A DNA stretch of 39,819 nt from a plasmid. Position numbers and translations under genes: made by a program. The stretch lies in the sequence record NZ_CP038019.1. One strand, 5' to 3'. The notes under the pieces are model-generated. The model was given only the letters and a program-made list of their open reading frames with translations. It was not told where the DNA came from and searched no databases. Shown piece after piece: positions 4,409 to 35,607 of the stretch; the stretch's first letter is position 1; every line of letters starts with the position of its first letter.

Positions 4409-6320
4409 TATGGGTATTTTCAGCAAGCAACACCGAAATAATGCAGCCGGCCATCGGGAAGAACCGATTTCCAAAAACAGGGAACGCTGGGTAGCAGTGG
4501 GTCTGCTGTTGGGTAGCGTATTACTCGGCCTGTCGGCAGCGACACAGTATTTTGCTGCCGCTGCCGGTTATGACCCTGCTTTGGGTTTCCATATCGGCAA
4601 GCTTTATATGCCGTGGAGTATTTTGATTTGGTACGGTAAGTGGCGGTCGGTGTATCCCAAGCCGTTAATGACGGCATTCAGCATCATGTTGGTGCTGGTC
4701 ACTCTGAGTATGATGGGCATACTGATATGGCGCATTGTCAGAGCAAACACCAATAAGGCACACGAATCCTTGCACGGTTCGGCACGATGGGCTGACCGTA
4801 AGGATATCGAAACCGCTGGCTTGCTACCGAAAAAAGGACAGGATAGCGACGGTGTGTACGTTGGTGGCTGGCTCGACAAACAGGGTAAGCTGCATTATTT
4901 GCGCCATTCCGGTCCGGAGCATGTACTGACTTACGCACCGACCCGTTCCGGTAAAGGTTTGGGTTTGGTTATCCCGACCTTGTTGTCATGGCCGCACAGT
5001 ACGGTCATTACCGATTTGAAAGGCGAATTGTGGGCATTGACCGCCGGTTGGCGCCGCCAATACGCCTATAACAAGGTTATCCGCTTCGAGCCGGCCACTG
5101 CCGCTGGTAGTGCTGCCTGGAATCCGTTGGAGGAGATCCGTATCGGTACCGAGTATGAAATCGGCGACGTGCAGAATTTAGCTACCATGATTGTGGATCC
5201 AGACGGGAAAGGGTTGGTCAGCCACTGGGAAAAAACCGCATTTGCCCTGCTGACGGGCGTTATTTTGTTTGCCTTGTACAAAGAGCGGAAAAACGGGCGG
5301 ATGGCCACTTTACCGGGGATCGACCGGATGTTATCCAATCCGGAACAACCGGTGCAGGATTTATGGGTCGAAATGGCGACCCATTCCCAGGACTATACCG
5401 ATGATGGCCGTGAGTTACTGGTGGTGTCCTCCGCCGGACAGGATATGTTGGATAGGCCGGACGAAGAGGCCGGTTCCGTCCTTTCTACGGCCAAATCCTA
5501 TTTGGCCTTGTACCGCGACACGGTGGTGGCAGCCAATGTCAGCCGTTCGGACTTTCGGATTAAAGACCTGATGAATGACGAAAGCCCGGTCAGCCTATAC
5601 ATCATTACCCAGCCGAACGATAAATTGCGGTTGCGCCCGTTGGTGCGTATTTTGGTAAATATGATTTTCCGGTTGCTGGCGGACAAAATGGAGTTTGAGA
5701 ACGGGCGGCCGAAGGCCAATTACAAGCATCGGCTGCTGTTTATGGCGGATGAATTTCCCAGTTTGGGCAAGTTGGATATTCTGCAAGAGTCGCTGGCGTT
5801 TGTTGCCGGTTACGGGATCAAATGCTACCTGATTACTCAGGATTTGAACCAATTGAAGAGTCGGGAAACCGGCTATGGTCCGGATGAGACCATTACCTCA
5901 AACTGCCACGTCCAAAACGCTTATCCGCCCAACCGGATTGAAACGGCAGAACATCTGTCTAAGCTGACCGGTGTTACAACGGTGGTCAAAGAACAAATCA
6001 CCACCAGCGGCAAACGCGCCAGTGCCATGTTGAGCCAGGTGTCGCGCACGACGCAGGAAGTACAACGGCCCTTGCTGACAGCCGACGAGTGCATGCGCAT
6101 GAAGGGGCCGGTTAAAGATGCCAACGGTATGGTTACCGAGGCCGGTGATATGGTGATTTATGTGGCGGGTTATCCGGCGATTTACGGCCGCCAGATCCTG
6201 TATTTTATGGATCCGGCTTTTTCGGTCCGTGCCAAGGTACCGGCTCCGCGCCATACCGACCGTACCCGTACCTGTATCCGGATCTCGGATGCGCCCAGCG
6301 CATTCGACTTGATGACATGA
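4371..6320 (+). CDS. traG: Type IV coupling protein of the TraG/VirD4 family. An alternative start lies at 4410.
   Basis: N-terminal transmembrane segments, Walker A APTRSGKGLGLVIPTLLS and a DEF..LGK-type Walker B region (MADEFPSLGK). Length is 649 aa. Confidence 0.9.
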   Translation: MVRYGLVKVEISNMGIFSKQHRNNAAGHREEPISKNRERWVAVGLLLGSVLLGLSAATQYFAAAAGYDPALGFHIGKLYMPWSILIWYGKWRSVYPKPLMTAFSIMLVLVTLSMMGILIWRIVRANTNKAHESLHGSARWADRKDIETAGLLPKKGQDSDGVYVGGWLDKQGKLHYLRHSGPEHVLTYAPTRSGKGLGLVIPTLLSWPHSTVITDLKGELWALTAGWRRQYAYNKVIRFEPATAAGSAAWNPLEEIRIGTEYEIGDVQNLATMIVDPDGKGLVSHWEKTAFALLTGVILFALYKERKNGRMATLPGIDRMLSNPEQPVQDLWVEMATHSQDYTDDGRELLVVSSAGQDMLDRPDEEAGSVLSTAKSYLALYRDTVVAANVSRSDFRIKDLMNDESPVSLYIITQPNDKLRLRPLVRILVNMIFRLLADKMEFENGRPKANYKHRLLFMADEFPSLGKLDILQESLAFVAGYGIKCYLITQDLNQLKSRETGYGPDETITSNCHVQNAYPPNRIETAEHLSKLTGVTTVVKEQITTSGKRASAMLSQVSRTTQEVQRPLLTADECMRMKGPVKDANGMVTEAGDMVIYVAGYPAIYGRQILYFMDPAFSVRAKVPAPRHTDRTRTCIRISDAPSAFDLMT

Positions 6321-6868
6321 TAGCGCGGCGCATCCGGCCGCTGCTTGCGGCGGCTGCCAAGTGGGCGGCCGTTGCTTTAACTGTCGTCTTTGTCCTGTTG
6401 GCCACTGCCTATCTGTTGGGTATTCGTTTTAATACTTCCCGCAGCGTTCCCTACGGTTTTTACCGCATAGTGGACAAACCGATTGCCCGGCAGGTTTATG
6501 TACGCTTTTGTCCGCCGGATACCGTACCGTTCAGGTTGGCGCGGACACGCGGATACATCGAAGCCGGTTCCTGCCCCAGTGGTGCCCGTGGATTGATTAA
6601 AACAGTGGTGGGGATGCCGGGCGACCATTACCGGTTTAGTGATGCCGGTCTGGTATTGAACGGTCATTTGCAGACCAATACCCGTCCGTTGCTTGAGGAT
6701 GGTGCCGGTCGGTCTTTGCCCTTGAATCGCAGTAGCGGCATTTTGCAGGCGGGGCAATATATCCTGATGGGGAACAACGTGCCCAACTCTTACGATGCCC
6801 GTTATTACGGCATCATCAACGAGCAGGATGTGACCGCGGTTTTGGAACCGGTATGGTTGCTGGACTAA
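6317..6868 (+). CDS. traF: TraF-like conjugative signal peptidase (S26 family), involved in pilin maturation
   Basis: N-terminal transmembrane anchor. S26-like segments GDHYRFSDAGLVLNG and ILMGNNVPNSYDARYYG. The start overlaps the traG stop (ATGA). Position matches RP4 traF. Confidence 0.75.
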   Translation: MIARRIRPLLAAAAKWAAVALTVVFVLLATAYLLGIRFNTSRSVPYGFYRIVDKPIARQVYVRFCPPDTVPFRLARTRGYIEAGSCPSGARGLIKTVVGMPGDHYRFSDAGLVLNGHLQTNTRPLLEDGAGRSLPLNRSSGILQAGQYILMGNNVPNSYDARYYGIINEQDVTAVLEPVWLLD

Positions 6869-9273: not shown

Positions 9274-12237
9274 ATGACGGCCAAAAAACCGTTCTACCAA
9301 CAAGTAGCCGATAAACTGATCGAACAGTTGCAACAAGGAACCGCTCCCTGGCAAAAGCCGTGGGATGGTGAAGGTATGCCAGACCACATGCCCCACAATA
9401 CGATTACCGGTCGCCGTTATCGCGGCATCAATAATCTGTGGTTGCTGGCACAACAACGGCAAGATCCACGTTGGATGACATACAAACAGGCTGCCGCAAT
9501 CGGTGCCCAGGTGCGTAAAGGCGAAAAGGGCACGGTCATTGAGTATTGGAAGTTTACTGAAGAAATCAACAAGACCGATGAGCAAGGCCGCGAAATCATT
9601 GGTGCAGACGGCAAACCGGAAAAACAGACGGTGCAGCTGGAGCGACCCAAAGTATTTCATGCCGTGGTGTTCAATGCCGAACAAATCGACAATCTGCCGC
9701 CATTGGAAATATCGCCGCTGGCTTGGAATCCGGACGAACGGGCAGAAACCATCCTGCGCAATTCCGGTGCTTTGATCCAGCATCGCGCCGGTGACCGAGC
9801 ATTTTATTCGCTCAGAACCGACAGCATCACCCTGCCCCTGCGTGAGCAATTCGCTGATGCGGGGCATTACTATGCCGTTGCCCTGCATGAATTAGGCCAT
9901 TGGACCGGGCATGAGACCCGGCTAAATCGTGATATGTCCCATCCGTTCGGCAGCGAAGGTTATGCCCGGGAAGAATTGCGGGCAGAAATCGCATCTTTGA
10001 TGCTGAGCCAGGACTTGGGCGTTTCTTTCCATCCCAAACAACATGCCAGCTATGTAGACAGTTGGATTAAAGCGTTACAAGATGATCCGATGGAAATCAT
10101 GCGGGCCGCTGCTGATGCGGAAAAAATACATGCTTATGTTATGGAACTGGCCCAGATGCAGACAGTTGAGCAGCAGCAGGAGGAGAGTATGGGGCAAACC
10201 CAGCAGAACATAGATGAAGCCAGTCTGGATGCGGAACGGCAGGCTCTCCAGGCTGTTCAAGATGGATCCATCGCTGAATCGGTCGACTCATTGGTCAAAG
10301 AGCACCGTGTATCAGATCTCAAACAATTAGATGCCATCGTGGCCACGATAGAAGAGAGTGGTCGGCAAGGTGCTTTTTGGCAGCGGCATCAGCCGCCGGC
10401 AGACGAAGCAGCTTTTTTGGTTAAGTTGGTTGAAGCCAGAACGGTCTTGGATGATGCTGTGCACCAGATGGCAGCCGAGGTCGAGTCGGTGGCCGAACAG
10501 CTGCAACCGTTCTTGCCGCCGCAATCGGATGACGAGACAGTCAAAATCGTATCTGATGAAAAACGCTATGTACAAATCCCGTATGCGGACAAAAATGAAG
10601 CCAAAGCCCTGGGTGCCCGTTGGGATAAGGAGAAGAAATCCTGGTATATCCCCCCTGGCGTTAATCAAGCACCATTTGAAAAATGGTTGAACAGCCCGGT
10701 CAATCAGGCACAAACGGTTAGTACCACGGAACCGGCCGCCGACAAAATTCTGATTGATGTCCCGTACCGTGAAAAAAATGATGCACGCGCCCTAGGTGCC
10801 CGTTGGGATAAAGAACAGAAATCCTGGTACATCCCGGCTGGCACCAATGCCGCCCTGTTTGCCCGCTGGATGCAGGCGAAACCGGAGGTTGTTGCAGAAG
10901 AAGCGGCTCCCGATTCAATGCCGCAAGATGCGGCGGTCGAGCAGCAAGCAGCTGCGGTGCAGCAAGAACGGCAGGCAATCCGGCAGCAACAGGGTGACCA
11001 AACGCTTGAACGGGTGTATTTGGCCGTACCGTATGCCGAACGCGGTGCAGCCAAGGAACAAGGTGCCCGCTGGGATAAGGCCAACAAGTCTTGGTACATC
11101 ACCAGCGATCATCCCAATTTATCGGCCGTTGCCAAATGGCTGCCGGAAAACCAAGCGCTTCAGAGCGAACCGGCGATGTCGCCGCAAGAAGAGTTTGCCG
11201 ATAAGTTGCGTGAATTGGGCTGCGTGGTGGAGAAGGGGCATCCGTTCATGGACGGGCAAAAGCACCGCATTACCACGGTTGGCGATAAAGCCGGAGAGAA
11301 ATCCGGCTTCTACATCGCTTATCTGGATGGGCATCCGGCCGGTTATGTGAAGAATAACCGGACCGGCCAAGAAGAGCGTTGGAAAGCCAAAGGTCATAGT
11401 TTATCGCCGGCAGAAAAAGCTAAACTGGCTGCCGAAAGTGCCAGCAAACTTCAACAGCGCGAAGAACAAAAGCGGCAGGCGCAAGAGGCGGCGGTTGAGC
11501 GCATCAAACACTATATGCGCGGTTATCAACCGGTGTCGGAACCAACCCCTTATTTACAGACGAAAGGCATCCAACCGCAACCGGGTATTTTTACCGACCG
11601 TACCGGCCAGAAAACCTATATCCCGGTTTATAACATCGAGGGCGAATTGCGTTCGATGCAGTATATCCAACCGGACGGCACCAAACGTTTCGCCAAGGAC
11701 AGCCAACAGGAGGGCGGTTTGCACGTCGTGGGCGCCCGCGACCTACAAACCGCCAGTACCATCGTGTTGGCCGAGGGCTACGCCACCGCCGCCACTATTA
11801 ACGAAGCCACGGACGAGACCGTGGCCTGTGTCGCCGCGTTTAATTCCGGTAACCTGCCGTTGGTGGCCGCCGAATTAAGCCGCCGCTATCCGGAAAAACA
11901 ATTTTTGGTTGCCGGGGATGATGATTTGGCGGTGCAGGCCAAACAAGGGCGCAACCCCGGACGGGAAAAAGCCATGGAAGCAGCGGCCGTGTTGAACTGC
12001 CCGGCGGTGTTGCCGGTTTTCGCCCCCGGCGAACAATCGGCTGATCAAAAAGCGTTCACCGATTTCAACGATTTGGCACAGAAATCGGCGTTTGGCCGTG
12101 AAGGCGTGGCCAAACAAATCGGTGAAAAAATCCGTGCTCAGGCTGTTACCCAAACGGCTCGGCACGACCGGAAGCCGCCTCAGCCAGAACGGGAGCAAGC
12201 CGTAGCAGTTAAAAAACGCAGTGGTCCGCGTCGTTAG
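9274..12237 (+). CDS. traC: TraC-like multidomain protein: an N-terminal ArdC-like ssDNA-binding and zincin domain, three tandem WYIP repeats, and a C-terminal Toprim DNA primase
   Basis: RBS GAGGAGG, then ATG at 9274. The first 54 codons of the ORF-track start at 9112 look like read-through junk. An HEXXH-type motif is present (ALHELGHWTGHE). There are three copies of the repeat PY(A/R)(D/E)KN(D/E)A(K/R)ALGARWDK(E/A)(K/Q)KSWYI. The Toprim segment reads VLAEGYATAATINEATDETV...FLVAGDDD. Confidence 0.8.
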   Translation: MTAKKPFYQQVADKLIEQLQQGTAPWQKPWDGEGMPDHMPHNTITGRRYRGINNLWLLAQQRQDPRWMTYKQAAAIGAQVRKGEKGTVIEYWKFTEEINKTDEQGREIIGADGKPEKQTVQLERPKVFHAVVFNAEQIDNLPPLEISPLAWNPDERAETILRNSGALIQHRAGDRAFYSLRTDSITLPLREQFADAGHYYAVALHELGHWTGHETRLNRDMSHPFGSEGYAREELRAEIASLMLSQDLGVSFHPKQHASYVDSWIKALQDDPMEIMRAAADAEKIHAYVMELAQMQTVEQQQEESMGQTQQNIDEASLDAERQALQAVQDGSIAESVDSLVKEHRVSDLKQLDAIVATIEESGRQGAFWQRHQPPADEAAFLVKLVEARTVLDDAVHQMAAEVESVAEQLQPFLPPQSDDETVKIVSDEKRYVQIPYADKNEAKALGARWDKEKKSWYIPPGVNQAPFEKWLNSPVNQAQTVSTTEPAADKILIDVPYREKNDARALGARWDKEQKSWYIPAGTNAALFARWMQAKPEVVAEEAAPDSMPQDAAVEQQAAAVQQERQAIRQQQGDQTLERVYLAVPYAERGAAKEQGARWDKANKSWYITSDHPNLSAVAKWLPENQALQSEPAMSPQEEFADKLRELGCVVEKGHPFMDGQKHRITTVGDKAGEKSGFYIAYLDGHPAGYVKNNRTGQEERWKAKGHSLSPAEKAKLAAESASKLQQREEQKRQAQEAAVERIKHYMRGYQPVSEPTPYLQTKGIQPQPGIFTDRTGQKTYIPVYNIEGELRSMQYIQPDGTKRFAKDSQQEGGLHVVGARDLQTASTIVLAEGYATAATINEATDETVACVAAFNSGNLPLVAAELSRRYPEKQFLVAGDDDLAVQAKQGRNPGREKAMEAAAVLNCPAVLPVFAPGEQSADQKAFTDFNDLAQKSAFGREGVAKQIGEKIRAQAVTQTARHDRKPPQPEREQAVAVKKRSGPRR
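10570..11145 (+). repeat. Three imperfect tandem repeats inside traC, each about 120 nt and about 230 nt apart
   Basis: ggtgcccg(t/c)tgggataa(g/a)...tcctggta(t/c)atccc recurs three times at the nucleotide level. The protein repeats are IPYADKNEAKALGARWDKEKKSWYIP, VPYREKNDARALGARWDKEQKSWYIP and VPYAERGAAKEQGARWDKANKSWYIT. Confidence 0.8.
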
Positions 12238-12246
12238 GAGAATAGC

Positions 12247-12795
12247 TTGGATCGTAGGAAATTTTTACAGGGTGCGGTTGGTACGCTGGGTGCCGGTATG
12301 CTTGGTTTGCCGACCATTGCCCTGGCTGACGACAATCGTTTTTGGCTGCGTGACCGCAAATTATCGATATATCGGCCGGCTTCAGGCGAAAGGCAAAATG
12401 TTACATTTTTCAAGGACGGCCGCTATTCACAAGATGGTTATCGGCGGTTGTGCTGGCTGTTTCGTGACGTAGTGGACGGCAATGCCGTCATTGCCATGAA
12501 TATCAGCCTGTTTAACCTGCTGTTCGCCCAGCAGCAGTATCTGCGTGCTATTGGCCGCAGCAATCCGCTGTTGGTCTTGCACAGCGGCTATCGTACCCGC
12601 CGGCACAACAATACTTTGGAAGGGGCAGCAAAAAATTCACGCCACTTGGTCGGGGATGCGGCCGATTTCCATTTCCGACAGGCGACGTTGGAGGAAGTGC
12701 TGGCACTGGCCAGGCGTTTTCGGGTCGGCGGTATCGGGACGTACAGTACTTTCGTACACAACGACATCGGTCGCTACCGTGAGTGGCGCGGTTGA
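12247..12795 (+). CDS. Tat-exported zinc peptidase of the M15/DUF882 (YcbK-like) family with a TTG start; likely a peptidoglycan peptidase
   Basis: RBS aggaga lies 5 nt before the TTG. Twin-arginine signal RRKFLQGAVGTLGAGMLGLPTIALA|DD. M15-type metal ligands are present (H in SGYRTRRHNN, HLVGDAAD, H in FVHND). Confidence 0.6.
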   Translation: MDRRKFLQGAVGTLGAGMLGLPTIALADDNRFWLRDRKLSIYRPASGERQNVTFFKDGRYSQDGYRRLCWLFRDVVDGNAVIAMNISLFNLLFAQQQYLRAIGRSNPLLVLHSGYRTRRHNNTLEGAAKNSRHLVGDAADFHFRQATLEEVLALARRFRVGGIGTYSTFVHNDIGRYREWRG

Positions 12796-12800
12796 TAAAC

Positions 12801-12828
12801 GGGCTACCTGAAAATCTTCAGGTAGCCT
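12801..12828. terminator. Perfect 11-bp-stem hairpin made of an inverted DNA-uptake-sequence pair (Eikenella dialect), 6 bp after the peptidase stop
   Basis: gGGCTACCTGAA aatc TTCAGGTAGCCt. The minus-strand arm is an exact AGGCTACCTGAA. Inverted DUS pairs act as terminators in Neisseriaceae. Confidence 0.55.
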
Positions 12829-13024
12829 GTTATGTAAAGAAGTTACTTTTGCCACAAAATTGAGCTATAATAAACTTACTGCAAGAGCTTTTTTAAGACA
12901 CATTAACCAGCGAACGGGTGTCTTAATGTGGGCAGTCTGGCTGTCGCTAGCCAGTTCAGTAGCTCAATCGAAAGATTGGTATCCGACCCCATGAGAGCTA
13001 AGGAGAGGCTGCGGCTACTACTTC

Positions 13025-13053
13025 AAGCACCTAACATTAGGTGCTTTTGTTTT
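13025..13053 (+). terminator. Rho-independent terminator: an 8-bp stem followed by TTTTGTTTTG
   Basis: aagcacct aacatt aggtgctt then a T-run. It closes the structured intergenic region and overlaps the convergent orf143 stop. Confidence 0.6.
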
Positions 13054-13468
13054 GCCTGGGCATCGTGCCTATTTTTGTGCCGCGAGCCATTGTTCCACCG
13101 AAAGCGGTTACGACGGAATAGGTAGTCAGCCCGTCCCTTTCCTGCCGTTCCAAAACAACCGTGCCCAATCGAAAGCGTACAACCATAGGCCGGTGAAAAC
13201 CGCGCATATTGCTAAATTCGCAATGAATCCCTGCTCCGGGCTGTAATATCATCTTCACATACAGACAGACACCTTCTTCATCGCAAGGCAAATTATGTCG
13301 ATTTAAATCCGCCGTATGCTCCGCCAAAATATGTGCTGCCCCAAAACCGCGGTTAGCCCCTCGGTGTTCTCCGTACTTCACTACGATTATGCCAGGAGGA
13401 AATGTATGTTTATGGGGTTCATTCAGTAACGGGAACTGCCCAATTTCTTTGATTATTCGATTTCTCAT
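13037..13468 (-). CDS. Hypothetical protein, 143 aa; the only minus-strand gene in the cargo region
   Basis: Intact ORF with a His-rich central segment (EHRGANRGFGAAHILAEHTADLNRH). No family recognised. It is convergent with the tra operon. Confidence 0.35.
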   Translation of the reverse strand: MRNRIIKEIGQFPLLNEPHKHTFPPGIIVVKYGEHRGANRGFGAAHILAEHTADLNRHNLPCDEEGVCLYVKMILQPGAGIHCEFSNMRGFHRPMVVRFRLGTVVLERQERDGLTTYSVVTAFGGTMARGTKIGTMPRQNKST

Positions 13469-13616
13469 CTCGTTAATCCTTTATTTCTAGATATCTTATG
13501 AAAAAGCCGAGTGAATTTCAAGCTTGTAGATATATTTATTTATATGCGTCTGAAATTCAGTGTACGGCTTGATTTTTATTGGCATTGTAAATGGATGGGC
13601 AATTTACCTATTAATT

Positions 13617-13645
13617 ATTGACCTAGTTAATTAACCTATGTACAA
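13617..13645 (+). promoter_or_regulatory. Sigma70-like promoter TTGACC-N17-TACAAT with a 10-bp palindrome GTTAATTAAC in its spacer
   Basis: Read directly from the AT-rich divergent region 13469-13769. It points toward the 13770 ORFs. Confidence 0.4.
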
Positions 13646-13769
13646 TACAAATTATTGACCAAGCGGATGGGATGGCCAACAACCTATACTTAATTTAGCT
13701 AAGGTGGTTTTATGAAGGTAAACTATAGAAATGATGAAAATTGTAAAGAATCAATAGAAGGGTTGTTAA

Positions 13770-14066
13770 ATGGTTGTTGACCTTAATAAGGTGCTTACAG
13801 AGATGAATCCGCCGCCGATGTTTGTAGATATAAGAAAGCTACTCCGGTTGCAGTATAACCGCTCGATAGACAGTGAAGTATTGAAAATATACTCAGGTAA
13901 GGTTGATGCTGATATGCAGGATTGGTTAGCGAGGAAGGCGGCATACTGCTTACTAAAAGGAGATGGAGATAATGCATACGCTTGGATAGAATTTATTTTG
14001 GCATTGGATATAGATAATACAAAAATTATTGTGGATTACATTAACGGTAATCAGGATTTATCATAG
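13770..14066 (+). CDS. Hypothetical protein, 98 aa, AT-rich codon usage
   Basis: ORF in low-GC DNA. Product unknown. Confidence 0.35.
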   Translation: MVVDLNKVLTEMNPPPMFVDIRKLLRLQYNRSIDSEVLKIYSGKVDADMQDWLARKAAYCLLKGDGDNAYAWIEFILALDIDNTKIIVDYINGNQDLS

Positions 14067-14078
14067 ACTGGAGGTATC

Positions 14079-14381
14079 ATGGAAGAAAAAGAAAATCTGA
14101 AAGGGTTGTTATCTAAAACCTATGAATTAAGGGATGGGTTAAAGAAAGATTATAGATTTGCTTTATTAATGGAGGCTATATCTATATTGTCGCTTATTTT
14201 AGGAGTTATGAAGTTAAATAATGATGTATGGGTCTCGCCATTTGTTTTAGTTCTTCTTGGGACTAGCCTAATTTTTGGGTATATGATTGTGAGAGGTTTC
14301 TTTTTACTAAGAAGAACAATGGCTGTTATCATTGCGTTGGAATATGAAATTAAACAGAAGAGTAAAAATGAAAAAATGTAA
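14079..14381 (+). CDS. Hypothetical small membrane protein, 100 aa, two predicted transmembrane helices
   Basis: Hydrophobic segments ISILSLILGVMKL and VLVLLGTSLIFGYMIV. The stop overlaps the recombinase start (taATG). Confidence 0.4.
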   Translation: MEEKENLKGLLSKTYELRDGLKKDYRFALLMEAISILSLILGVMKLNNDVWVSPFVLVLLGTSLIFGYMIVRGFFLLRRTMAVIIALEYEIKQKSKNEKM

Positions 14382-15043
14382 TGAATAAAAAAGCCAAAAT
14401 CGCCCGCATTTATTGTCGGGTATCCACTGTGCATCAAGATTTGACCCGGCAGATGGCGTTAGTCGAATGGGCAGAGCAGCGCGGCTATTATGTAGCCAAG
14501 GTATATGCAGAAAAAGCCAGCGGTCGCACAGCTAACCGTGAAAAGCTGGCCGAAATGATAGACGACCTGAAACAAGGGGAAGTGGTCATTGTAGAAAATA
14601 TCGACCGTCTAACCCGTCTGCCTATCAAGGAGGCGGAAAAGCTGATCGGCCGAATTAAAGCTAAAGGCGCACGGCTGGCCATGCCCGGCGTGGTGGATTT
14701 AGATGATTTGTATCCGGCCGACAGTATGGCCGGTATCGTGATGGATACCGTACAAGACCTGTTGCTGAAGATCGCCATGAAATCGGCCAGCGATGATTAC
14801 GAACTGCGCCGAGAGAGGCAGGCTGCCGGATTCGCTCGAGCTCGGGCAGAGGGGCGCAGCGTGGGTGGGCGCAGAATAGACCAGAAGCGTATCGATGCCG
14901 TAGCCTTTTGGCGTCAAAAAGGTTTGTCAATCGCGGAAACCGCCAAAGCATTGAGTTGTTCGCCAGGCACAGTTAAGCGAATCTGGCGGAAGATACAGGC
15001 TGGTGAATATAGGGTTTCCGGCAATAAGCTGCCCGAAAAATAG
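14381..15043 (+). CDS. Serine recombinase (resolvase/invertase family), probably the plasmid multimer resolvase
   Basis: N-terminal catalytic motif IYCRVSTVHQD (serine nucleophile). C-terminal HTH GLSIAETAKALSCSPGTVKRIWRK. Confidence 0.85.
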   Translation: MNKKAKIARIYCRVSTVHQDLTRQMALVEWAEQRGYYVAKVYAEKASGRTANREKLAEMIDDLKQGEVVIVENIDRLTRLPIKEAEKLIGRIKAKGARLAMPGVVDLDDLYPADSMAGIVMDTVQDLLLKIAMKSASDDYELRRERQAAGFARARAEGRSVGGRRIDQKRIDAVAFWRQKGLSIAETAKALSCSPGTVKRIWRKIQAGEYRVSGNKLPEK

Positions 15044-15404: not shown

Positions 15405-15629
15405 ATGAATACAATTAAACCTACTGGTCGTGATGATACCATTAAGATGATAAAAGAAGCTTGTGAGAAAAACCGTCGGATGATGGAAGACAAGGAGTAC
15501 TGCAAGAAAATAGAGGCTGAGTTGCATTACACTGTGGATTCTCCAGCAGTACAAAAGTTGCGTGAAGAGTTAAAAGTATTGAGAGGTCAGAGAGAACAAC
15601 AGGAGGTGGCTGCCGATGGTGGCGCTTAA
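15405..15629 (+). CDS. Epsilon-like antitoxin, 74 aa, translationally coupled to the zeta toxin gene
   Basis: Small helical acidic and basic protein. Its stop overlaps the zeta start by 14 nt. Confidence 0.5.
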   Translation: MNTIKPTGRDDTIKMIKEACEKNRRMMEDKEYCKKIEAELHYTVDSPAVQKLREELKVLRGQREQQEVAADGGA

Positions 15630-16821
15630 CTCCGAAATTAAAGAAAGAGATTTTTCAAATTCACCAGAACTGGCAGAAGTTCAAAGAGAAGCTATTGACC
15701 AGGCTAGCCGTTATACTGGTGAAATGCTTGAAAGATACAATCAGCATCCAGATACTTCCGATGGTCGCTATATTTGTGCGGACACCTTTAAAGAACTTTT
15801 TGCAGTATTTGAGAATAAAGATGATCGAGCCAAGGTCAACAATGCAATTCATAACTCGGCTGCCGTTTTATCCGCCACACAGTTTGATGAAATATTGAAA
15901 CGGGAAGAACCAGACAAGAGTCAAGCTATTTTTGTTACGGGGATTCCTGGGTCGGGTAAGACTACAACAGTAAAAAATATGATGATGCGGGAGAATACAA
16001 AGTTACTCTTTGAAGGACAGCTTGCACGGCCGCAACCTGCTTTCCATAAGATTGAGCAATGCTTGGGAAAAGGGTTGGAGGTTACTGTTGTGGCAGTCAG
16101 TATGACAGCAGAACGGGCTTTAGATAATACGTATAGGCGATTTAATGAATACGGGAGGGGTGCAAGCATTGGCATCATGGCTGATATTCAAGCCAATTTA
16201 CCCAATGGTCTTAGACAAATTCATGAAAGATTTGGCAATGCAGTCAAAATTGTTGGTATCAACCAAGATAAGAATAGCGAGTTTCTTGATAGGTTCGATG
16301 ATGTTCTCAACATGCTTTCCTTGGGGTCTCAAGACCAGATATTAGGTAGGTTGGCTGGAAAGATTCAGAGTGACTTGGTAACCGGGAAGATTGATGTATC
16401 CTGTTTCAATCAAGCCAAAGGCAGCATGAATTTAGAAAGCATTTTTGCTGAGAAAGAGTACGTGCAACAGAGGGTAGTAGTTAATTCTAAAAGTGTTGTG
16501 TTGGAAGCTAAACTGGCAAGCGGTATTTGGACGAAACTCAAAATAATACCAGTACAAGGGATGAAGGGCGGTGTTTATCCGTTGGGAACGGCCAAACCGG
16601 CCGCAGCCGACCAATCTTATGAAGGCGAAATTGTCTATAAGGATAATGCGTCGATTTTCCAGCAAACCAAGCAAGGGTTGGTTCGGCATCAGAACACCGA
16701 GCAGCTGGCCGGTCAGGTACGGATAGGGCAGCACTATGCCATCGGCAACGGCCAAGCCAAGGCAGTCAGCCTGACAGCCAGCCGGTCGATGAAGCAGACA
16801 CATGGTCGTCGGCTTCGATAG
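15616..16821 (+). CDS. Zeta-toxin family P-loop kinase (UNAG kinase type) fused to a shared C-terminal domain of about 115 aa
   Basis: Walker A IFVTGIPGSGKTTTVKN. Total 401 aa. The C-terminal 285-401 segment (VVNSKSVVLEAKL...GMKGGVYPLGTAK...RSMKQTHGRRLR) is homologous to the C-termini of the ORFs at 17188 and 38167. Confidence 0.8.
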   Translation: MVALNSEIKERDFSNSPELAEVQREAIDQASRYTGEMLERYNQHPDTSDGRYICADTFKELFAVFENKDDRAKVNNAIHNSAAVLSATQFDEILKREEPDKSQAIFVTGIPGSGKTTTVKNMMMRENTKLLFEGQLARPQPAFHKIEQCLGKGLEVTVVAVSMTAERALDNTYRRFNEYGRGASIGIMADIQANLPNGLRQIHERFGNAVKIVGINQDKNSEFLDRFDDVLNMLSLGSQDQILGRLAGKIQSDLVTGKIDVSCFNQAKGSMNLESIFAEKEYVQQRVVVNSKSVVLEAKLASGIWTKLKIIPVQGMKGGVYPLGTAKPAAADQSYEGEIVYKDNASIFQQTKQGLVRHQNTEQLAGQVRIGQHYAIGNGQAKAVSLTASRSMKQTHGRRLR

Positions 16822-16852
16822 GCAGGGCGGGATATAATAAAACAGCATAAAG

Positions 16853-17179
16853 ATGAAAGGAAGGGTGATGGCTGAATTAACTCACGAACAGAAACAGAAA
16901 TTGTTGGCCGAATTTGAACGGCCCAAGGTGGTGAAATACAGCCCGGAAGAGATCCGGTCTGGGAAAGAAATCTATATTCAGGTGGTGGCCAGCTGTGCAT
17001 TGGAGGGGCATGCCCCAGATGATTTTGGCAAAGTGGTAACGATGGAACGTATTCGTGGTGAATTAACTCCGGAAAAAGAGCTACAAATTTTATTACAGCA
17101 AGATCCGGTTGAGACAGAACGAATCCAAGCGAAAGTCGCACGTTTGCAAGAGTTGGGATTATCGTGGAAGGATTTATAG
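16853..17179 (+). CDS. Class I Fic antitoxin (VbhA-like). The probable true start is at 16868.
   Basis: Inhibitory (S/T)xxxE(G/N) motif present as SCALEG. It lies immediately upstream of a Fic gene. Confidence 0.55.
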   Translation: MKGRVMAELTHEQKQKLLAEFERPKVVKYSPEEIRSGKEIYIQVVASCALEGHAPDDFGKVVTMERIRGELTPEKELQILLQQDPVETERIQAKVARLQELGLSWKDL

Positions 17180-17187
17180 GATAAATC

Positions 17188-18261
17188 ATGGGGCTTTCTA
17201 ACGAAGAGCAAATGGAGTTCAACCGGGTTGTTACTAGTAATTTACAAATGGCAGTTGTCGAGTTAAGAGCAACCCAAGATTTTTCTTTCCATGGTTTGAA
17301 GCAACTTCATGATAAAACATTCTTTCCTAGCCCTAGTTTGCCGGAGAGAGTCCGGGTGGAAATGAATAATTTTTATCAAATGCGCCCGGCAAGGGAGGAT
17401 TGGGGTGGGAAGTTGCGCTTTAATATCACTCCGTATCCGTATGAGACGTATTATTCGCCGTTGGAAAAAGCCGATTATCAACAGGTGGAACGGGTCATTG
17501 GGCTGGCGAAATATGCCAATACCAAAGACTTACCATTTGAGGAGAAAGTGCAACGGTTGGCTCAAGTTTATGCCGAGGTCGACTATCTGCATGCCTTTTG
17601 GGATGGCAACAGCCGGGTGAATCGGGCCTTTGTCCAAGAGTTGGCGGCCAGTTCCGGAGTTGAACTCGATTTCAGTAAAGTCAGTGAAAAGGAGATGTAT
17701 ATCGCCCGGGATAAATCTCTGGCCGAACTGAATCTAAGCCGGCGTCCCGAGCAGTTGAAAAACCTGACGCATATGAATCCCAACCCGTACGTTAGCTTGC
17801 AGGGATCGCTGGAGGAGTTGAATCAGTATTACCCCAAGATAGATTTGCCTTCGGTATTTCGGCAGATTGCGGTGGAGCGGGCAATTCGCCAAGAGCTCGA
17901 TTACAGCCAGGTGCGGGCGGTGGTCAATTCATCTGGTGTTGTGCTGCAACAGAAAACCGGCGATGCCTGGCAGGATGTCGAGCGAATACCGGCAGAAGGG
18001 ATGAAGGCCGGTATTTATCCATTGGGCACGGCCAAGTCGGCTATTGCCGGCCAATCCTATGAGGGTGAGGTGGTTTATCGGGACAACGCTTCGATTTTTC
18101 AAAAGACCAAGCAAGGGCTGATTCGGCATCAGAATACCGAGCAGTTGGCCGTCCAGGTAAGGGTAGGGCAGCGCTATAGCATCGGTAAGGGGCAAGCCAA
18201 GGCAGCCAGCCAGACCGTCAGTCGGTCGATGAAACAGACGCATAGTCGTTGGATTCGATAA
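17188..18261 (+). CDS. Fic/Doc-family protein with a variant active-site motif, plus the shared C-terminal domain
   Basis: Motif HAFWDGNSRVNR against canonical HxFx(D/E)GNGRxxR. The C-terminal 233-357 segment is about 80% nucleotide-identical to the zeta C-terminus (GMKAGIYPLGTAK...RSMKQTHSRWIR). Confidence 0.75.
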   Translation: MGLSNEEQMEFNRVVTSNLQMAVVELRATQDFSFHGLKQLHDKTFFPSPSLPERVRVEMNNFYQMRPAREDWGGKLRFNITPYPYETYYSPLEKADYQQVERVIGLAKYANTKDLPFEEKVQRLAQVYAEVDYLHAFWDGNSRVNRAFVQELAASSGVELDFSKVSEKEMYIARDKSLAELNLSRRPEQLKNLTHMNPNPYVSLQGSLEELNQYYPKIDLPSVFRQIAVERAIRQELDYSQVRAVVNSSGVVLQQKTGDAWQDVERIPAEGMKAGIYPLGTAKSAIAGQSYEGEVVYRDNASIFQKTKQGLIRHQNTEQLAVQVRVGQRYSIGKGQAKAASQTVSRSMKQTHSRWIR

Positions 18262-20402: not shown

Positions 20403-22016
20403 TTATTGCTGCTGTTGTTGCTGCGCCCGGTTGCGGGCGCTGACTTCTTTTAATGCTTGGCGTACTAAACCGACTCCGCCCAGCAGCATCAGTGCGGCAT
20501 TGAGCATGGAGCCAACCACGCTTTTTGCCGAAAACCCGATGCCTTCATTACCGCTGCCGCCGGCCAGGCTGCCCACCATTGGCGGTACCTTGGTGCATAA
20601 AATCGCCAGCGTCAGGCCGACTAGCAACAATACCGTATAGTGGAATAGCATAAAGCCTTCCGTTTGACTCACCATGCTGGTAATGATGTTTTTACCAATT
20701 GCCATCATCAACATCATGGTCATCAGTTGCAACCCGATATTCAGCAGCTGTCGATAATAAGAGATAGCCATGTCGGAGGTCCAACGTCCGCCGCCGAAGC
20801 CCAGTACGAATAGTCCGGCAGTCATATATATCCAGGCAGCGATATACAAAAGGGCGTAGTTGATTGCAATGAGTACCAAAGCAAAGAAAGTCACCACCAT
20901 CATCAGGATGGCGACAAACAATTCCGGATTGAGCCAAGAGGCTGCATTGGTAATATCTATTAGGTCGGGTATTTTGACTGCTCGGATCGAGTTGGCGGCC
21001 GCAGCACGGTTCCACATATCAAACAATGATTGTACGAAGCCGGCCGTTTTTTGTGTTTCACCGCCGGTACCGGCCTCAACCCCCAGTTGGTTGAACGAAT
21101 TGATGATGGATTCGCTGATGGCAAAACCGTTTTGCAGCAGCCACCAGAAAAAGCCGATGAACAAAATCAGGCGGATGGTTTCGGCGAAGAAGGCGGCAAT
21201 ATCGTCTTTACGGAATACCAGATCAATGCCGGTATAAACCACGCTGATGGCGGCCAGTGACCAAAACAACCAGCTGGCGGCAGTAGTCAGGGCGGTTACC
21301 CATTTGCCGGTGCCATCCCGGAAGGTATCCATTATCTGATCCAATACGCTGGCATCCACTGGGTTGTTGCCGGGGTCAAGTTTTTCCGCATCCGAGGCGC
21401 TTTCCAGATCTCCGTCTTCGATTGGTTGGATAGGTGTGCCACGTCCCTTGGCCATCCTGTCGGCCATATCGCAGATCGAGGTTTTATTGATGTCGCGGAA
21501 ACCGCCGCAACGGCCGGAATTCAGCATTTTTTGACAGTTGCCGACCCCCAGTTGCACACAGGCTAAAACCAGCTCTCCTGTTACCGGTCGGCCGTCAAAG
21601 GTTTTCATTTGCATCAATCGTCGCACCACGGGATTGCGCAACCCGTCCGTAGTCAATTTTGACCAGGCATTAAGCTGGGTTTGCAGACTGGCGAGTTTGT
21701 ATTGCTCCGGCGACATATGGGCATAAGCGCGGATATTGCGGTGGTTCAATTGCAATACACCGAAGCAGCAGGAGCCGTTATAGAGGTGCAGATAGCCGCC
21801 ACTTTCTACATTGATGGCTAGATTGGCCACGGCGTTGGCATTCTGTTTTAACCAAGGGCTGGCATAGGGTGAATTGCGAACAGCATCAACAATTTGTTGA
21901 TGTGTGGCACGTTGCTGGGAAAAGTAGGTTACTTTTCCCATCGCTGTTGTCGTCGACAACAGGAACAACAGGCACAAACCGATCAGTCGACACCAGATTG
22001 CCGTTAGCCGTTGCAT
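20403..22016 (-). CDS. trbL: TrbL/VirB6-family inner-membrane protein with an N-terminal periplasmic domain of about 200 aa and a poly-Q C-terminus
   Basis: Polytopic VirB6-like core FAETIRLILFIGFFWWLLQNGF... The protein ends in ...RAQQQQQQ. Confidence 0.8.
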   Translation of the reverse strand: MQRLTAIWCRLIGLCLLFLLSTTTAMGKVTYFSQQRATHQQIVDAVRNSPYASPWLKQNANAVANLAINVESGGYLHLYNGSCCFGVLQLNHRNIRAYAHMSPEQYKLASLQTQLNAWSKLTTDGLRNPVVRRLMQMKTFDGRPVTGELVLACVQLGVGNCQKMLNSGRCGGFRDINKTSICDMADRMAKGRGTPIQPIEDGDLESASDAEKLDPGNNPVDASVLDQIMDTFRDGTGKWVTALTTAASWLFWSLAAISVVYTGIDLVFRKDDIAAFFAETIRLILFIGFFWWLLQNGFAISESIINSFNQLGVEAGTGGETQKTAGFVQSLFDMWNRAAAANSIRAVKIPDLIDITNAASWLNPELFVAILMMVVTFFALVLIAINYALLYIAAWIYMTAGLFVLGFGGGRWTSDMAISYYRQLLNIGLQLMTMMLMMAIGKNIITSMVSQTEGFMLFHYTVLLLVGLTLAILCTKVPPMVGSLAGGSGNEGIGFSAKSVVGSMLNAALMLLGGVGLVRQALKEVSARNRAQQQQQQ

Positions 22017-22023
22017 GATGGGC

Positions 22024-22584
22024 TTACCTTAGCTGAATAGAGCGGTCGCATTCGCGTGTATGGCGACCATACATGATGGTGCGGAAACGTATGGTTTTGC
22101 TGGCGGCATCGTAGGCGTATTCGGTATGGTGCCGGGCCAGATTACCTGGTTCGTCATCCAGATTCAGGTAGCAGTAATTGGGCAGGTCGCGCACCGTGGT
22201 GCGGCCGCTGGCTTTATGGCGTTGTACCACCCGCATTGTGCAGGTCGAGTAGGTAGGCTGAGCCCTTGTTGTGCCGTCGCCGTTGGGAGGAGCTAGGCAG
22301 GTGCCGCCGGGTATATCGCTATTATCCAGCATGGTGAAAATATAGTGGTTCTCGGTGGTATCGACTTCGGTCAGCAGCGCAAACGCCACATCACGCGGCC
22401 GCAGGCGGTTGCCCCACACTTCGCGCACGGTTTGCGCCTGTTGCGGGGTGCCGGTTTTTCGGTAGAAATTAAAGGTGATTTCCGGCATCTGTTTCCAAGC
22501 AGTCCGTCCCGGGGCATTTTGTGCCGCTGCCGGCAGTGTGCAGACAACCAATCCGGCTGTCAGTAGTAAGGCAAATGATTTCAT
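22024..22584 (-). CDS. Secreted or periplasmic hypothetical protein, 186 aa, between the two trbL paralogues
   Basis: Signal peptide MKSFALLLTAGLVVCTLPAAAQ. Four Cys residues. No recognised family. It contains a DUS-core 10-mer. Confidence 0.4.
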   Translation of the reverse strand: MKSFALLLTAGLVVCTLPAAAQNAPGRTAWKQMPEITFNFYRKTGTPQQAQTVREVWGNRLRPRDVAFALLTEVDTTENHYIFTMLDNSDIPGGTCLAPPNGDGTTRAQPTYSTCTMRVVQRHKASGRTTVRDLPNYCYLNLDDEPGNLARHHTEYAYDAASKTIRFRTIMYGRHTRECDRSIQLR

Positions 22585-22658
22585 CAGCTACTCCTTATCA
22601 GGGTTGGGGTAGCCAAGGAGCCAGGCGGTTACCACCCGTATTCCCCTTGGCGCCAAAT

Positions 22659-24311
22659 CTATGCTTCCGGATCGTGATCCGGATTCCGTTCACGTTGTTG
22701 GCGGCGCTCCCGCTCTTCACGGATTTGGTTGGCCAGCTTCCCGCCGCGGGTTTGATTCATCAGGATCCGGCCGGCGGCGGTACTGATGGCTTGAATGGTA
22801 CTCATGGCAATGGTTTTGCTGGCCCCTTCCGCCGCAGCGGTATCGTTTTGCCCGGCGGCGGCCCGGCCGCCGGCATCGCCGCCTTTTTGCCCGCCACTGT
22901 CGGCTTTGCCGCCGGAGGCTTCCGGCGAACTGATAGTGTTGCCGCCACTGGTGTTGCTGCCGGCAACGTTGGTGGCTTGGGCGGTCGCTGCGGTGTTGCG
23001 GTTGCCTTCTGCGATCAGCGGCTGGCCGTCTTGGCTGGCGCTGTTGTCGGCCGAACCGGAATCACTCAGGGCTTCCATCGCACTGCTCTTGTGGTGGCTG
23101 TCGCCGGTTTCGCTTTGCGTACCGCCGCCTTGGTTTTTACCACCTTGGCTGACACTGTCTTTTTTCAGTTCGCGTACGGCTTTGGCAAAACCGGCCAGTT
23201 CCAAGGCCGCGCCCGTCATGGCTGCCGTGGCCGCCATCACCGCGCCGCCACCGAAGGCACCGACCCCGTTGCTGCCGCTGCCGCCGGCAATCGAGCCGAC
23301 CATTTGCGGGACTTTGTTGGATAAGATGAATAGGGTGATGGCCACCAGCAGCAGCACCACGAATTTGAAGAGTGCCATAGATTGGACGGCCTGACTGGCT
23401 TCTCCCATTACATTTTTAGCAATACCAATCATCAGGATCATGGTCATCAGTTGCAACCCGATATTCAGCAGCTGTTTGAAATAGGCCACCGCCATGTCCG
23501 AAGTCCAGCGCGAACCGCCGAAGCCCAATACGAATATGCCGGCGTACAAATACAGCCAGACCGAGATTTTGAGTAACAGGAAATTGATTGCGATCAGTGC
23601 GATGAATACTGTGGTCAAGACCAGCATAAGGATGCCGGCCAGTAGCTGAGCGCCGCTTAATTGGCTGGTACTTTTGACAGTATCTGCCCACAGTTTAAAG
23701 GCCAGCAACATCACGTCCGAAGGGGTGATGGGGCCGGTTTGCCCGGCCGATTCGCCTAATTGCACAAAAGAGTCGATGATGGCGGTACCGATGTCGATAC
23801 CGTTTTGCAGCAGCCACAGAAAAAAACCGAAAAACAGGATAAAGCGTACCGTTTCAGCAAAGAAATCGGCAATATCGCCCTTGCGGAACACCATCTGGAT
23901 TCCGGTCCAAGTGAGGCTGATGGCGCCCAAGGTAAAAAACAGCCAAGTGGCGCGTTGTACCAAGACATCGCTCCATTTTTGTGCTTTATTCTTGAATTCC
24001 CTTTCAATCATGGAGAATTTTTGGGCATCACTGTCTACCGGCATCGATTCTTCGGCGACAGTGTCATTTTTCGGCGGGTTAATTAGCACCGCTTCCCCGC
24101 CGACGGACACGATTCTGGGCTCGGAGGCAGCCGATGGCTGTTCGACGGTTTGCTGTTTTGGCTCGGATGCCGCTGTCGGTTGGGGGTCCCCCCAAGCGCC
24201 GGCGGCAAACAGCAGCAGTCCCAGCAATAGTAGACAAAATGGCAACCAGCGTTGTATCCGGTGCGTCCAGGTTAGTGATGTCGAGACAGGCAGCGTGGCG
24301 GTAGCCATCAC
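22659..24311 (-). CDS. Second TrbL/VirB6 paralogue with a long Gly/Ser/Ala-rich, charged C-terminal extension
   Basis: FAETVRFILFFGFFLWLLQNGIDIGTAIIDSFVQLG aligns with FAETIRLILFIGFFWWLLQNGFAISESIINSFNQLG of trbL. C-terminus is ...GGSGSNGVGAFGGG...REERERRQQRERNPDHDPEA. Confidence 0.75.
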   Translation of the reverse strand: MMATATLPVSTSLTWTHRIQRWLPFCLLLLGLLLFAAGAWGDPQPTAASEPKQQTVEQPSAASEPRIVSVGGEAVLINPPKNDTVAEESMPVDSDAQKFSMIEREFKNKAQKWSDVLVQRATWLFFTLGAISLTWTGIQMVFRKGDIADFFAETVRFILFFGFFLWLLQNGIDIGTAIIDSFVQLGESAGQTGPITPSDVMLLAFKLWADTVKSTSQLSGAQLLAGILMLVLTTVFIALIAINFLLLKISVWLYLYAGIFVLGFGGSRWTSDMAVAYFKQLLNIGLQLMTMILMIGIAKNVMGEASQAVQSMALFKFVVLLLVAITLFILSNKVPQMVGSIAGGSGSNGVGAFGGGAVMAATAAMTGAALELAGFAKAVRELKKDSVSQGGKNQGGGTQSETGDSHHKSSAMEALSDSGSADNSASQDGQPLIAEGNRNTAATAQATNVAGSNTSGGNTISSPEASGGKADSGGQKGGDAGGRAAAGQNDTAAAEGASKTIAMSTIQAISTAAGRILMNQTRGGKLANQIREERERRQQRERNPDHDPEA

Positions 24312-34184: not shown

Positions 34185-34264
34185 TACAGGGTTTGTTTAC
34201 CCCAGGGAAAAGCTGTGCCAGGGCAGGATATCTCCCCCTGCCCTATCCAACAAAAGGAAAACTG

Positions 34265-35137
34265 ATGAAAACAGAGAATAAATCCACAACCGACTTGGTA
34301 CAGGCGAGGCAAGAAGAGCATCGCCGGCGCAGCTATTTGCAGGAAAAAGGTATTAACCCAGACGGGGAAATGGTGATTCAAGACCTGTTTGGCCGTACCT
34401 TATTCGGCTCGTCTCATCGCCAGCTGCCCAATGACTTTGCCAGGTCTTGTTTATTCACGGCCCGGCACCCCAAAATCCCGAGGAAAACATTTAGTCGTGC
34501 AAAGTTATTTCATGTTTCAGAGAAAATCGAAATCCTTTATACCGGTATCGAATTACGGTCCATTGACGATGAACTAATTTGGATGCAGCTGGTGGAGTAT
34601 TGCCGCTCCGCCCCATTGGGCGATTATATCGAATTCGATATTAGACAGCTGATTAAAGACATCGGCTGGGGAACTGCCGGAACTTATTATAAAAAAGTCA
34701 GGGAATCCATCAGCCGGATGAAGGCGACAGAAATTTATATCAAAAACAGCAATGCCTTCGGTATCAGCGGAGGACTGTCCCTTATCGGCGATTATGTTGG
34801 ATACGCCAACCAAGACGGACAGCCTACTCGTTATCAAATCAGTATTGATAAAAACTTGATTCTGCTATTTGCGGGAGAGACCTTTACCAATATTCCTTGG
34901 AGTCAATACAAACAGCTGTCGCCCATGGCCAGACGGTTGACCGATTATGTCTTTAGCCATCGGCAACCCAACCCCATCCAAGTCACCACCTTTTTGGCCA
35001 TGTGCGGTAGCGACCAAATCGACTCTCCCTCCAAAACCCAAAATCATAGTGCCAAAAAAGTCTGTGCCGAATTGGTTGATAAACAATTGGTCAAGGCGGC
35101 GTTCGTTCACGATGGCCGGATTATTGTAGAACGTTAA
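34265..35137 (+). CDS. trfA: TrfA-like replication initiator. The ORF-track start at 34193 is probably too far upstream.
   Basis: RBS aaaggaaaa then ATG at 34265, giving 290 aa. Operon context is ssb upstream and a 17-bp iteron array immediately downstream. Assignment is by synteny. Confidence 0.55.
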   Translation: MKTENKSTTDLVQARQEEHRRRSYLQEKGINPDGEMVIQDLFGRTLFGSSHRQLPNDFARSCLFTARHPKIPRKTFSRAKLFHVSEKIEILYTGIELRSIDDELIWMQLVEYCRSAPLGDYIEFDIRQLIKDIGWGTAGTYYKKVRESISRMKATEIYIKNSNAFGISGGLSLIGDYVGYANQDGQPTRYQISIDKNLILLFAGETFTNIPWSQYKQLSPMARRLTDYVFSHRQPNPIQVTTFLAMCGSDQIDSPSKTQNHSAKKVCAELVDKQLVKAAFVHDGRIIVER

Positions 35138-35240
35138 CCTCTCTCGGTCTAAAGGCCGGGTTTCTATGACTATCAGCCATATCCTGTCCCCAAGTTCGTT
35201 TCTTAGTGAGGCGTTGGCATTGTGGAAAACTACGCATGGT

Positions 35241-35607
35241 GCGTAATCTTAGCTGCCAAAAAATAGGATGCTGCGTAATCTTAGCTGCCAAAAAACAGGA
35301 AAAACCGGGAAACTGCGTAATCTTAGCTGCCTAGCATCCTAAAACACGGTATTTGCGTAATCTTAGCTGCCCAAATAGGCTGTTTCAGCCGTACGTCATA
35401 TAGGCGAACTAAATGAAAACAAAAAAAGCCGTTAATTTTAGCTAAAGTTATGTGGATAACCTGTGGAAAACTAATAATTCCGCCTAAAATTTAGGCAAAA
35501 AGTGCGTAATCTTAGCTGCCATCTGCGTAATTCTAGCTGCCCTCGCGCGTAATCTTAGCTGCCAATTTGCGTAATCTTAGCTGCCAAACCGCGTAATTTT
35601 ACCTGCC
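35241..35607. repeat. oriV: oriV iteron array: nine copies of the 17-bp GCGTAATCTTAGCTGCC, the last five at exact 22-bp spacing
   Basis: Copies start at 35241, 35273, 35315, 35355, 35504, 35525 (variant), 35547, 35569 and 35591 (variant). An AT-rich tract follows at 35608-35700. Confidence 0.85.
35451..35459 (-). promoter_or_regulatory. Consensus DnaA box TTATCCACA on the minus strand between the iteron groups
   Basis: The plus strand reads tgtggataa. Near-consensus copies tgtggaaaa occur at 35221 and 35462. Confidence 0.65.

Follow-up and report, generated by a model that had tools for sequence, protein, structure and literature searches.

An inverted pair of DNA uptake sequences in the Eikenella dialect, following the Tra1 operon of an IncP1-like conjugative plasmid

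The last gene of the Tra1/primase operon in a plasmid of about 39.8 kb is followed immediately by a hairpin whose two arms are inverted copies of a DNA uptake sequence (DUS) of the Eikenella dialect, AG-eikDUS. We consider it likely that this hairpin is a genuine inverted DUS pair (irDUS) marking the 3' end of the operon, and that the plasmid, which is of the IncP1-like conjugative type, lives in Eikenella. The principles involved have all been published: that inverted DUS pairs serve as terminators, that mobile elements are poor in DUS, that the dialect of a DUS indicates the lineage of origin, and that DUS offer conjugative elements a route of transformation. What is new is the instance: the gonococcal family of conjugative plasmids has a branch in Eikenella, and this branch carries the Eikenella dialect. 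No description of this branch was found in the literature searched, and it has no close match in PLSDB. Since the principle is established, the case is one of confirmation and extension, and not of discovery.

The plasmid and its hairpin

The sequence analysed (NZ_CP038019.1; 39,819 nt, referred to here as the window) is a complete IncP1-like conjugative plasmid of the pEP5289 family. The features needed for the argument are as follows.

1791-1873, + strand: traJ-II RNA (RF01760), 56.7 bits, upstream of the traJ/relaxase operon
6317-6868: 183-aa ORF in the traF position, placed by synteny with pEP5289 and relatives only (no domain scan)
12247-12795, + strand: M15/DUF882 peptidase gene (Pfam PF05951, 2.4e-21), with its TGA stop at 12793-12795
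12798-12831: entire hairpin, 34 bases, a putative bidirectional terminator or 3'-end hairpin
12801-12812, + strand: left arm, GGGCTACCTGAA
12817-12828, - strand: right arm, exact 12-mer AG-eikDUS AGGCTACCTGAA, found by direct search
12836-13056, + strand: conserved spacer between the hairpin and the convergent ORF
13037-13468, - strand: convergent 143-aa ORF with no Pfam match
14381-15043: serine resolvase, 1.5 kb from the hairpin
22163-22172, - strand: third eikDUS 10-mer core GCTACCTGAA, within a 186-aa ORF (22024-22584, - strand)
34193-35137, + strand: TrfA replication initiator (match 7.9e-59)
35242-35581, - strand: presumed oriV iterons, GCTAAGATTACG present seven times without mismatch, as two clusters a short way downstream of trfA

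The window has the full set of modules of the family: TrfA with iterons, Trb (MPF-T), a MOBP TraI relaxase with an oriT region, and partition genes of the KorB/IncC type. The trfA gene together with the seven iterons (34193-35581) shows that the plasmid is an autonomous IncP1-like replicon; KorB domains were found, and the IncC/KorB-type partition genes follow ssb-trfA. The MOBP relaxase, the T4CP coupling protein, TopoIII, an ArdC/primase fusion and the M15/DUF882 peptidase are all encoded on one strand, which also carries the traJ-II RNA, the sole Rfam family detected in the window. They make up the operon traJ-traI-traG-traF-topB-ArdC/primase (Tra1), of which the peptidase, with its twin-arginine-type N-terminus (MDRRKFLQ...), is the final gene. 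The gene order up to the peptidase is shared by pEP5289 and eight other family members. Beyond the peptidase lies a load region of low GC, containing the resolvase, a zeta-toxin-like gene and Fic/KfrB proteins, and the Trb operon lies on the strand opposite to the Tra1 genes.

The closest described system is the N. gonorrhoeae plasmid pEP5289 / pLE2451 (IncP1-like, 'Dutch' backbone; Pachulec & van der Does, 2010), which has the same modules in the same order: traJ-traI-traG-traF-topB-primase-DUF882, a load region with zeta toxins and a resolvase, Trb, ssb-trfA and par/kfr. Nucleotide similarity to pEP5289 is nevertheless detectable only in trbE/trbF, at 73%. This region gave the only megablast similarity in PLSDB, at 73% identity to 52 gonococcal plasmids, while positions 1-25000 of the window were without a megablast match in PLSDB and phage records. 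A look-up of the exact peptidase sequence, with either L or M as its first residue, gave no recorded protein. Unlike pEP5289, the window has no tetM.

Some further features of the gene content may be recorded here. Two tandem TrbL/VirB6-like genes (537 and 550 aa) occupy 20403-24311 on the - strand, where pEP5289 has one annotated trbL. Between them is the 186-aa ORF listed above, within which the third DUS core lies; its product has a signal peptide and conserved cysteines, and gave no match in Pfam. Three paralogous load genes (15616-18261 and 38167-39195, + strand) have a C-terminal KfrB part fused to a zeta-toxin-like or Fic/DOC N-terminal part, and their common C-terminus accounts for a 276-nt direct repeat (16545-16820 and 17985-18260, 80% identity). 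Two small ORFs at about 18.3-19.0 kb (no domain scan) resemble a toxin-antitoxin module.

The hairpin begins 5 nt after the stop codon of the peptidase gene. Positions 12796-12835 read TAAAC GGGCTACCTGAA AATC TTCAGGTAGCCT GTTATG, so that a stem of 15 bp is formed (12798-12812 with 12817-12831, including one G.U pair in the + transcript), closed by the 4-nt loop AATC at 12813-12816. The repeat finder likewise returned arms of 15 nt, 93% complementary and 4 nt apart. The right arm is an exact AG-eikDUS, and the left arm has the exact 10-mer core and matches the 12-mer at 11 of 12 positions, with G for A at position -2 (the first base). As RNA, the + strand is predicted to fold with -24 to -26 kcal/mol (z about -4.9) and the - strand with -21 kcal/mol (z about -4.8). 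The repeat search found no larger repeats or transposon ends around the hairpin, and an Rfam search of 12700-13800 gave no match.

The motif is over-represented in the window compared with chance. When AGGCTACCTGAA was searched allowing at most one mismatch, only the two hairpin arms matched, against an expectation of 0.05, and two matches were reached in none of 100 shuffles. The 10-mer core GCTACCTGAA occurs three times (at 12803, at 12817 on the - strand and at 22163-22172 on the - strand), again with 0.05 expected, and three were reached in none of 100 shuffles. The two arms are better counted as one event, which leaves two independent sites and a Poisson probability (at least 2, mean 0.05) of about 0.001. 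The canonical Neisseria core GCCGTCTGAA is absent from the window, although it has five one-mismatch matches against 2.05 expected; all six other dialect 10-mers (GCCGTCTGAA and the muc, sim, king, king3 and wad forms) gave zero counts, so that eikDUS is the sole dialect that occurs. An earlier, sequence-only reading of this DNA had described an inverted eikDUS pair forming a hairpin right after the peptidase gene, with an exact inverse arm, a further core on the minus strand and no canonical Neisseria DUS, and had proposed a count of all dialects and a comparison with chance as checks. The description holds in each of these respects, and neither check refutes it.

The third copy differs from the hairpin arms in that it matches as a 10-mer only, its 12-mer being CTGCTACCTGAA. 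It encodes the conserved residues C-Y-L-N as TGC TAC CTG AAT. In a relative with 40% GC the same residues are encoded by TGT TAT TTG AAC, and the motif is not formed. The core is kept in every Eikenella-clade relative whose sequence covers the region (L001, L013 and L014). This copy may be a by-product of GC-rich synonymous codons on C-Y-L-N as much as a result of DUS drive.

Dialect and host lineage

The sequence of AG-eikDUS is given as AGGCTACCTGAA (PMC12061091). In E. corrodens ATCC 23834, with 3269 copies, and in N. shayeganii 871, with 2245, it is the predominant repeat (Frye 2013, PMC3630211); its position rules are A at +4 and +10, T at +3, and a CTG core from +6 to +8 (PMC3630211). 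N. shayeganii is now grouped with Eikenella, and AG-eikDUS is termed characteristic of Eikenella species (PMC11316581). The assignment of the dialect to Eikenella, which the sequence-only reading had made, agrees with the literature.

That reading had also taken the dialect as a hint that the plasmid came from, or resided in, Eikenella or a close relative. A protein-seeded scan with the peptidase was made of 185,579 species-representative genomes, one per bacterial species. The best match was a 39,451-bp contig of Eikenella halliae NML130454, whose peptidase is 99% identical and which is syntenic with the window over the 20.5 kb compared, at 94-98% nucleotide identity (84-98% at the widest). 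The dialect had therefore anticipated the host genus of the nearest relative, which the protein search found independently. A host of the eikDUS group is established for this relative, from an isolate genome, and it is from the relative that we infer the host genus of the window.

Three metagenomic contigs belong to the same clade as the window and the E. halliae contig. The hairpin is present at the same place in all four of these relatives (L001 and L013-L015), with both arms perfect (AGGCTACCTGAA-AATC-TTCAGGTAGCCT), and the G in the left arm of the window must then be a derived, private substitution. Peptidase homologues (62-76% identity) led to eight further family members, of 33-52% GC, which are devoid of eikDUS and in which the sequence 3' of the peptidase is unrelated, and no eikDUS hairpin was found in L016-L030 or in pEP5289. 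A check of related plasmids, as proposed at the outset, thus gave conservation within the Eikenella clade and absence from more distant members: within the family, the DUS sites are confined to the Eikenella branch. As a separate observation, four of the metagenomic relatives (L020 and L025-L027, 33-39% GC) have a load region with an S8 autotransporter protease, an OmpA-like gene and a YadA-type adhesin, a virulence-like cargo that is absent from the window. One or two Haemophilus (Hin)-type USS 9-mers occur in L025-L027; they may hint at a Pasteurellaceae host, and are too few to interpret.

A comparison of k-mer signatures, the other proposed check, was of use for only part of the plasmid. 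The tetranucleotide signature of the window correlates with that of Eikenella-like contigs at r = 0.70, compared with 0.66 for the gonococcal plasmid pEP5289 and 0.94-0.96 for chromosomal chunks. Values of 0.70 and 0.66 do not discriminate, the comparison being with Eikenella-like contigs only, and the signature was rejected as a test of the host. The load region alone gives 0.31, which shows it to be foreign.

Comparison with chromosomal pairs, and termination

Inverted DUS pairs in the chromosomes of Neisseriaceae are described as two non-overlapping inverted DUS whose stem-loop directly follows a stop codon (Ambur 2007; Frye 2013; Spencer-Smith 2016; bioRxiv 10.1101/2025.10.24.684340), and the plasmid hairpin resembles them in this. 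In E. corrodens ATCC 23834 the pattern GCTACCTGAA-N(1,19)-TTCAGGTAGC accounts for 431 pairs (Frye 2013, Table S2), and the pair in the window fits it with N = 4. For a wider comparison, metagenomes were scanned for perfect 12-mer pairs, giving 120 contigs (835 kb, mean GC 53%) with 158 pairs. These contigs were picked by the motif, and are called 'Eikenella-like' on the basis of motif content and GC; densities were calculated with and without the seeding pairs.

The commonest loop length among the sampled pairs is 4 nt, as in the window. In position they are strongly biased: open frames of 100 codons or more end no more than 60 nt before 77% of the pairs, as against 19% of random sites, and convergent frame ends flank 56% of them (17% of random sites). 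Their median distance from the stop codon is 23 nt, compared with 5 nt in the window, where the pair is likewise intergenic, soon after the 3' end of an operon, and 208 nt from the stop of the convergent ORF. It is concluded that the plasmid hairpin is a typical Eikenella irDUS in anatomy and placement. It differs from the chromosomal pairs in being on a plasmid, in being the sole pair in 39.8 kb, in the G at position -2 of one arm, and in having a weaker U-tract than two thirds of the sampled pairs. A BLAST search of the window against the 120 contigs found no shared flanks, and there is thus no sign that the hairpin arrived within a chromosomal fragment.

The hairpin closes an 11-kb co-directional operon, and stands between it and both the convergent gene and, 35 nt downstream, a promoter-like element. 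Most inverted DUS pairs are reported to be within predicted terminators. The U-tract here is poor, the stem being followed by UUAUGUAA in the + direction and by GUUUAUCA in the - direction, with four T in eight in each tail, which explains why a scan for consensus terminators did not call the hairpin. At least five T on one side are found in 67% of the sampled chromosomal pairs, so that the tail in the window is in the lower third. Judged from its sequence, the hairpin would probably serve for termination or for stabilisation of the 3' end, though leakily. Another candidate, a GCAGCCTGAA 10-mer in L013/L014, was rejected as a DUS pair, and belongs to an ordinary A/T-flanked terminator.

The transcript of the convergent 143-aa ORF would head toward the hairpin. 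In L013 and L014 this ORF is among the called genes; it diverges fast, with 86% and 73% nucleotide identity in relatives, beside a spacer that is 98% identical in E. halliae and the metagenomic relatives. The spacer contains a perfect -10 element, TATAAT (12866-12871), followed about 150 nt on by a strong + strand terminator (13025-13046) and then TTGTTTT; it also holds a 22-codon ORF, MWAVWLSLASSVAQSKDWYPTP (12927-12995). It has no Rfam match, its fold z-score is only -2.2, and it was found in the Eikenella clade only. From these features it could be a gene for a small RNA or for a small, toxin-like peptide. In the low-GC clade L020-L022 there is also a non-coding stretch after the peptidase, and there an unrelated hairpin follows the stop.

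Uptake, alternative explanations and significance

The sequence-only reading had further suggested that the plasmid would be a preferred substrate for transformation of the Eikenella lineage. The tag itself is present, and published data indicate its likely effect: transformation of E. corrodens succeeds with eikDUS DNA (6.4e-5) and is undetectable with AT-DUS DNA, and binding of eikDUS DNA by N. meningitidis is about 95-fold weaker than that of its own DUS. DNA bearing the tag should accordingly enter Eikenella more readily, and Neisseria less so. It is only as a carrier of the tag that the plasmid fits the suggestion. The window has 0.075 cores/kb (3 in 39.8 kb), compared with 0.98-1.36/kb in the 835 kb of Eikenella-like contigs, which is 13-18 times lower and well short of the chromosome-like density of about 1 per kb. 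A low density is expected for a mobile element, and has no bearing on whether each copy is a DUS. The plasmid thus carries an uptake tag but is not DUS-enriched, and there is no sign of selection for uptake.

In this respect pEP5289 is very similar. It contains three GCCGTCTGAA, published as 14-fold below the density of the gonococcal chromosome, so that both plasmids have exactly three DUS cores in the dialect of the host at a density 13-18 times (window) or 14-fold (pEP5289) below that of the chromosome. The dialects differ, GCCGTCTGAA in pEP5289 and GCTACCTGAA in the window, and the sites are non-homologous. The three DUS of pEP5289 are all intragenic and unpaired, and there is no hairpin after its DUF882 gene. 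Two of its three canonical DUS have the AG-DUS form typical of commensal Neisseria and not the gonococcal AT-DUS form. At 9349-9365 there is a palindromic TTCAGGCAGCCTGAA, consisting of overlapping AG-kingDUS and AG-simDUS as described for Simonsiella muelleri, and at 9701-9710 a king3DUS 10-mer; both adjoin the tetM load region. The stray-dialect and AG-DUS sites may be traces of earlier hosts. The same logic has been applied to ICEriNK and ICENmu (Microb Genom 2020, PMC7371117), DUS-poor mobile elements whose dialect points to the resident lineage, and DUS sites were there proposed to give a conjugative element transformation as a second route. Those elements are chromosomal ICEs of Neisseria and Kingella, without homology to the gonococcal conjugative plasmids, and the study makes no mention of Eikenella or eikDUS.

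On the reading that we favour, a genuine irDUS on an Eikenella plasmid, the established biology of the Neisseriaceae suggests what the hairpin would do. Each arm, as double-stranded DNA, is a predicted binding site for the Eikenella type IV minor pilin ComP, and plasmid released by lysis, or fragments of it bearing the hairpin, would be taken up by competent Eikenella and only poorly by Neisseria. As RNA, the 15-bp stem would end or stabilise the operon transcript. It may also block read-through from the convergent gene and so act as a two-way terminator, though it would probably leak. The origin or fixation of the pair most likely dates from residence in Eikenella, through the same drive or selection that has made such pairs abundant in Eikenella chromosomes, and a density of three cores in 39.8 kb is what would be expected of an element that spreads mainly by conjugation.

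The hairpin could instead be a real eikDUS that is of no use to the plasmid, a passenger produced by molecular drive, the biased uptake with recombination through which DUS spread in Eikenella DNA, or by recombination with the chromosome, and harmless because it lies after the last gene of the operon. We regard this as possible, although rather doubtful. It would fit the density 13-18 times below the chromosomal level, which is matched by pEP5289, as well as the weak U-tract and a tetranucleotide signature that is only partly adapted (r = 0.70 compared with 0.94-0.96). Against this, the pair is perfect in all four relatives while the neighbouring ORF has fallen to 73-86% identity, and the absence of flanks shared with the 120 sampled contigs means that no imported block is seen. 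The operon also needs some terminator at this point, and in L020-L022 a hairpin of unrelated sequence lies after the peptidase stop.

An extension to the whole family can be put forward tentatively, as a suggestion that we think unlikely to be correct: that the family gains a few DUS of the local dialect independently in each genus of the Neisseriaceae, and keeps them, at about 1/15 of the chromosomal density, as a minimal tag for a second, transformation-based route of spread or rescue. It derives from the finding of three GCTACCTGAA in Eikenella plasmids and three GCCGTCTGAA in Neisseria plasmids at non-homologous sites, together with the stray Kingella/Simonsiella-type sites of pEP5289.

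It is much harder to see the hairpin as acting at the level of DNA, whether as an ssi-type or priming structure in conjugation or replication or as a recombination site for the resolvase, its identity as a DUS being incidental. Its position directly behind the primase (ArdC/Toprim) gene, with the resolvase gene 1.5 kb away, would suit such a role, and for a Neisseria ICE it has been suggested that the integrase targets inverted DUS pairs (PMC7371117). However, there is no second copy or partner site in the plasmid, other family members have no equivalent at this position, and no larger repeat is conserved beyond the DUS arms; we consider this explanation very improbable. The view that this is an ordinary terminator with a coincidental likeness to DUS and no particular link to Eikenella can draw on there being just one hairpin and one intragenic 10-mer and on a k-mer signature that does not separate Eikenella from Neisseria plasmids (0.70 and 0.66), but it is close to refuted, because a 12-nt arm would match one of eight dialects by chance with a probability of only about 8/4^12, three cores are present where 0.05 are expected, the dialect foretold the genus of an independently found closest relative, and both loop and placement match those of chromosomal pairs.

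The preferred reading, of a genuine Eikenella irDUS, implies that the host genus of a plasmid without any other label can be read correctly from a few bases of DUS dialect. If the independent gain of local dialects were also true, the DUS sites of a plasmid would record, in readable form, its travels from host to host. The Eikenella branch belongs to the plasmid family that spreads tetracycline resistance in gonococci. Given that the human oropharynx is common to Eikenella, Kingella and Neisseria, uptake tags of this kind bear on how far resistance plasmids can reach, by transformation as well as by conjugation.
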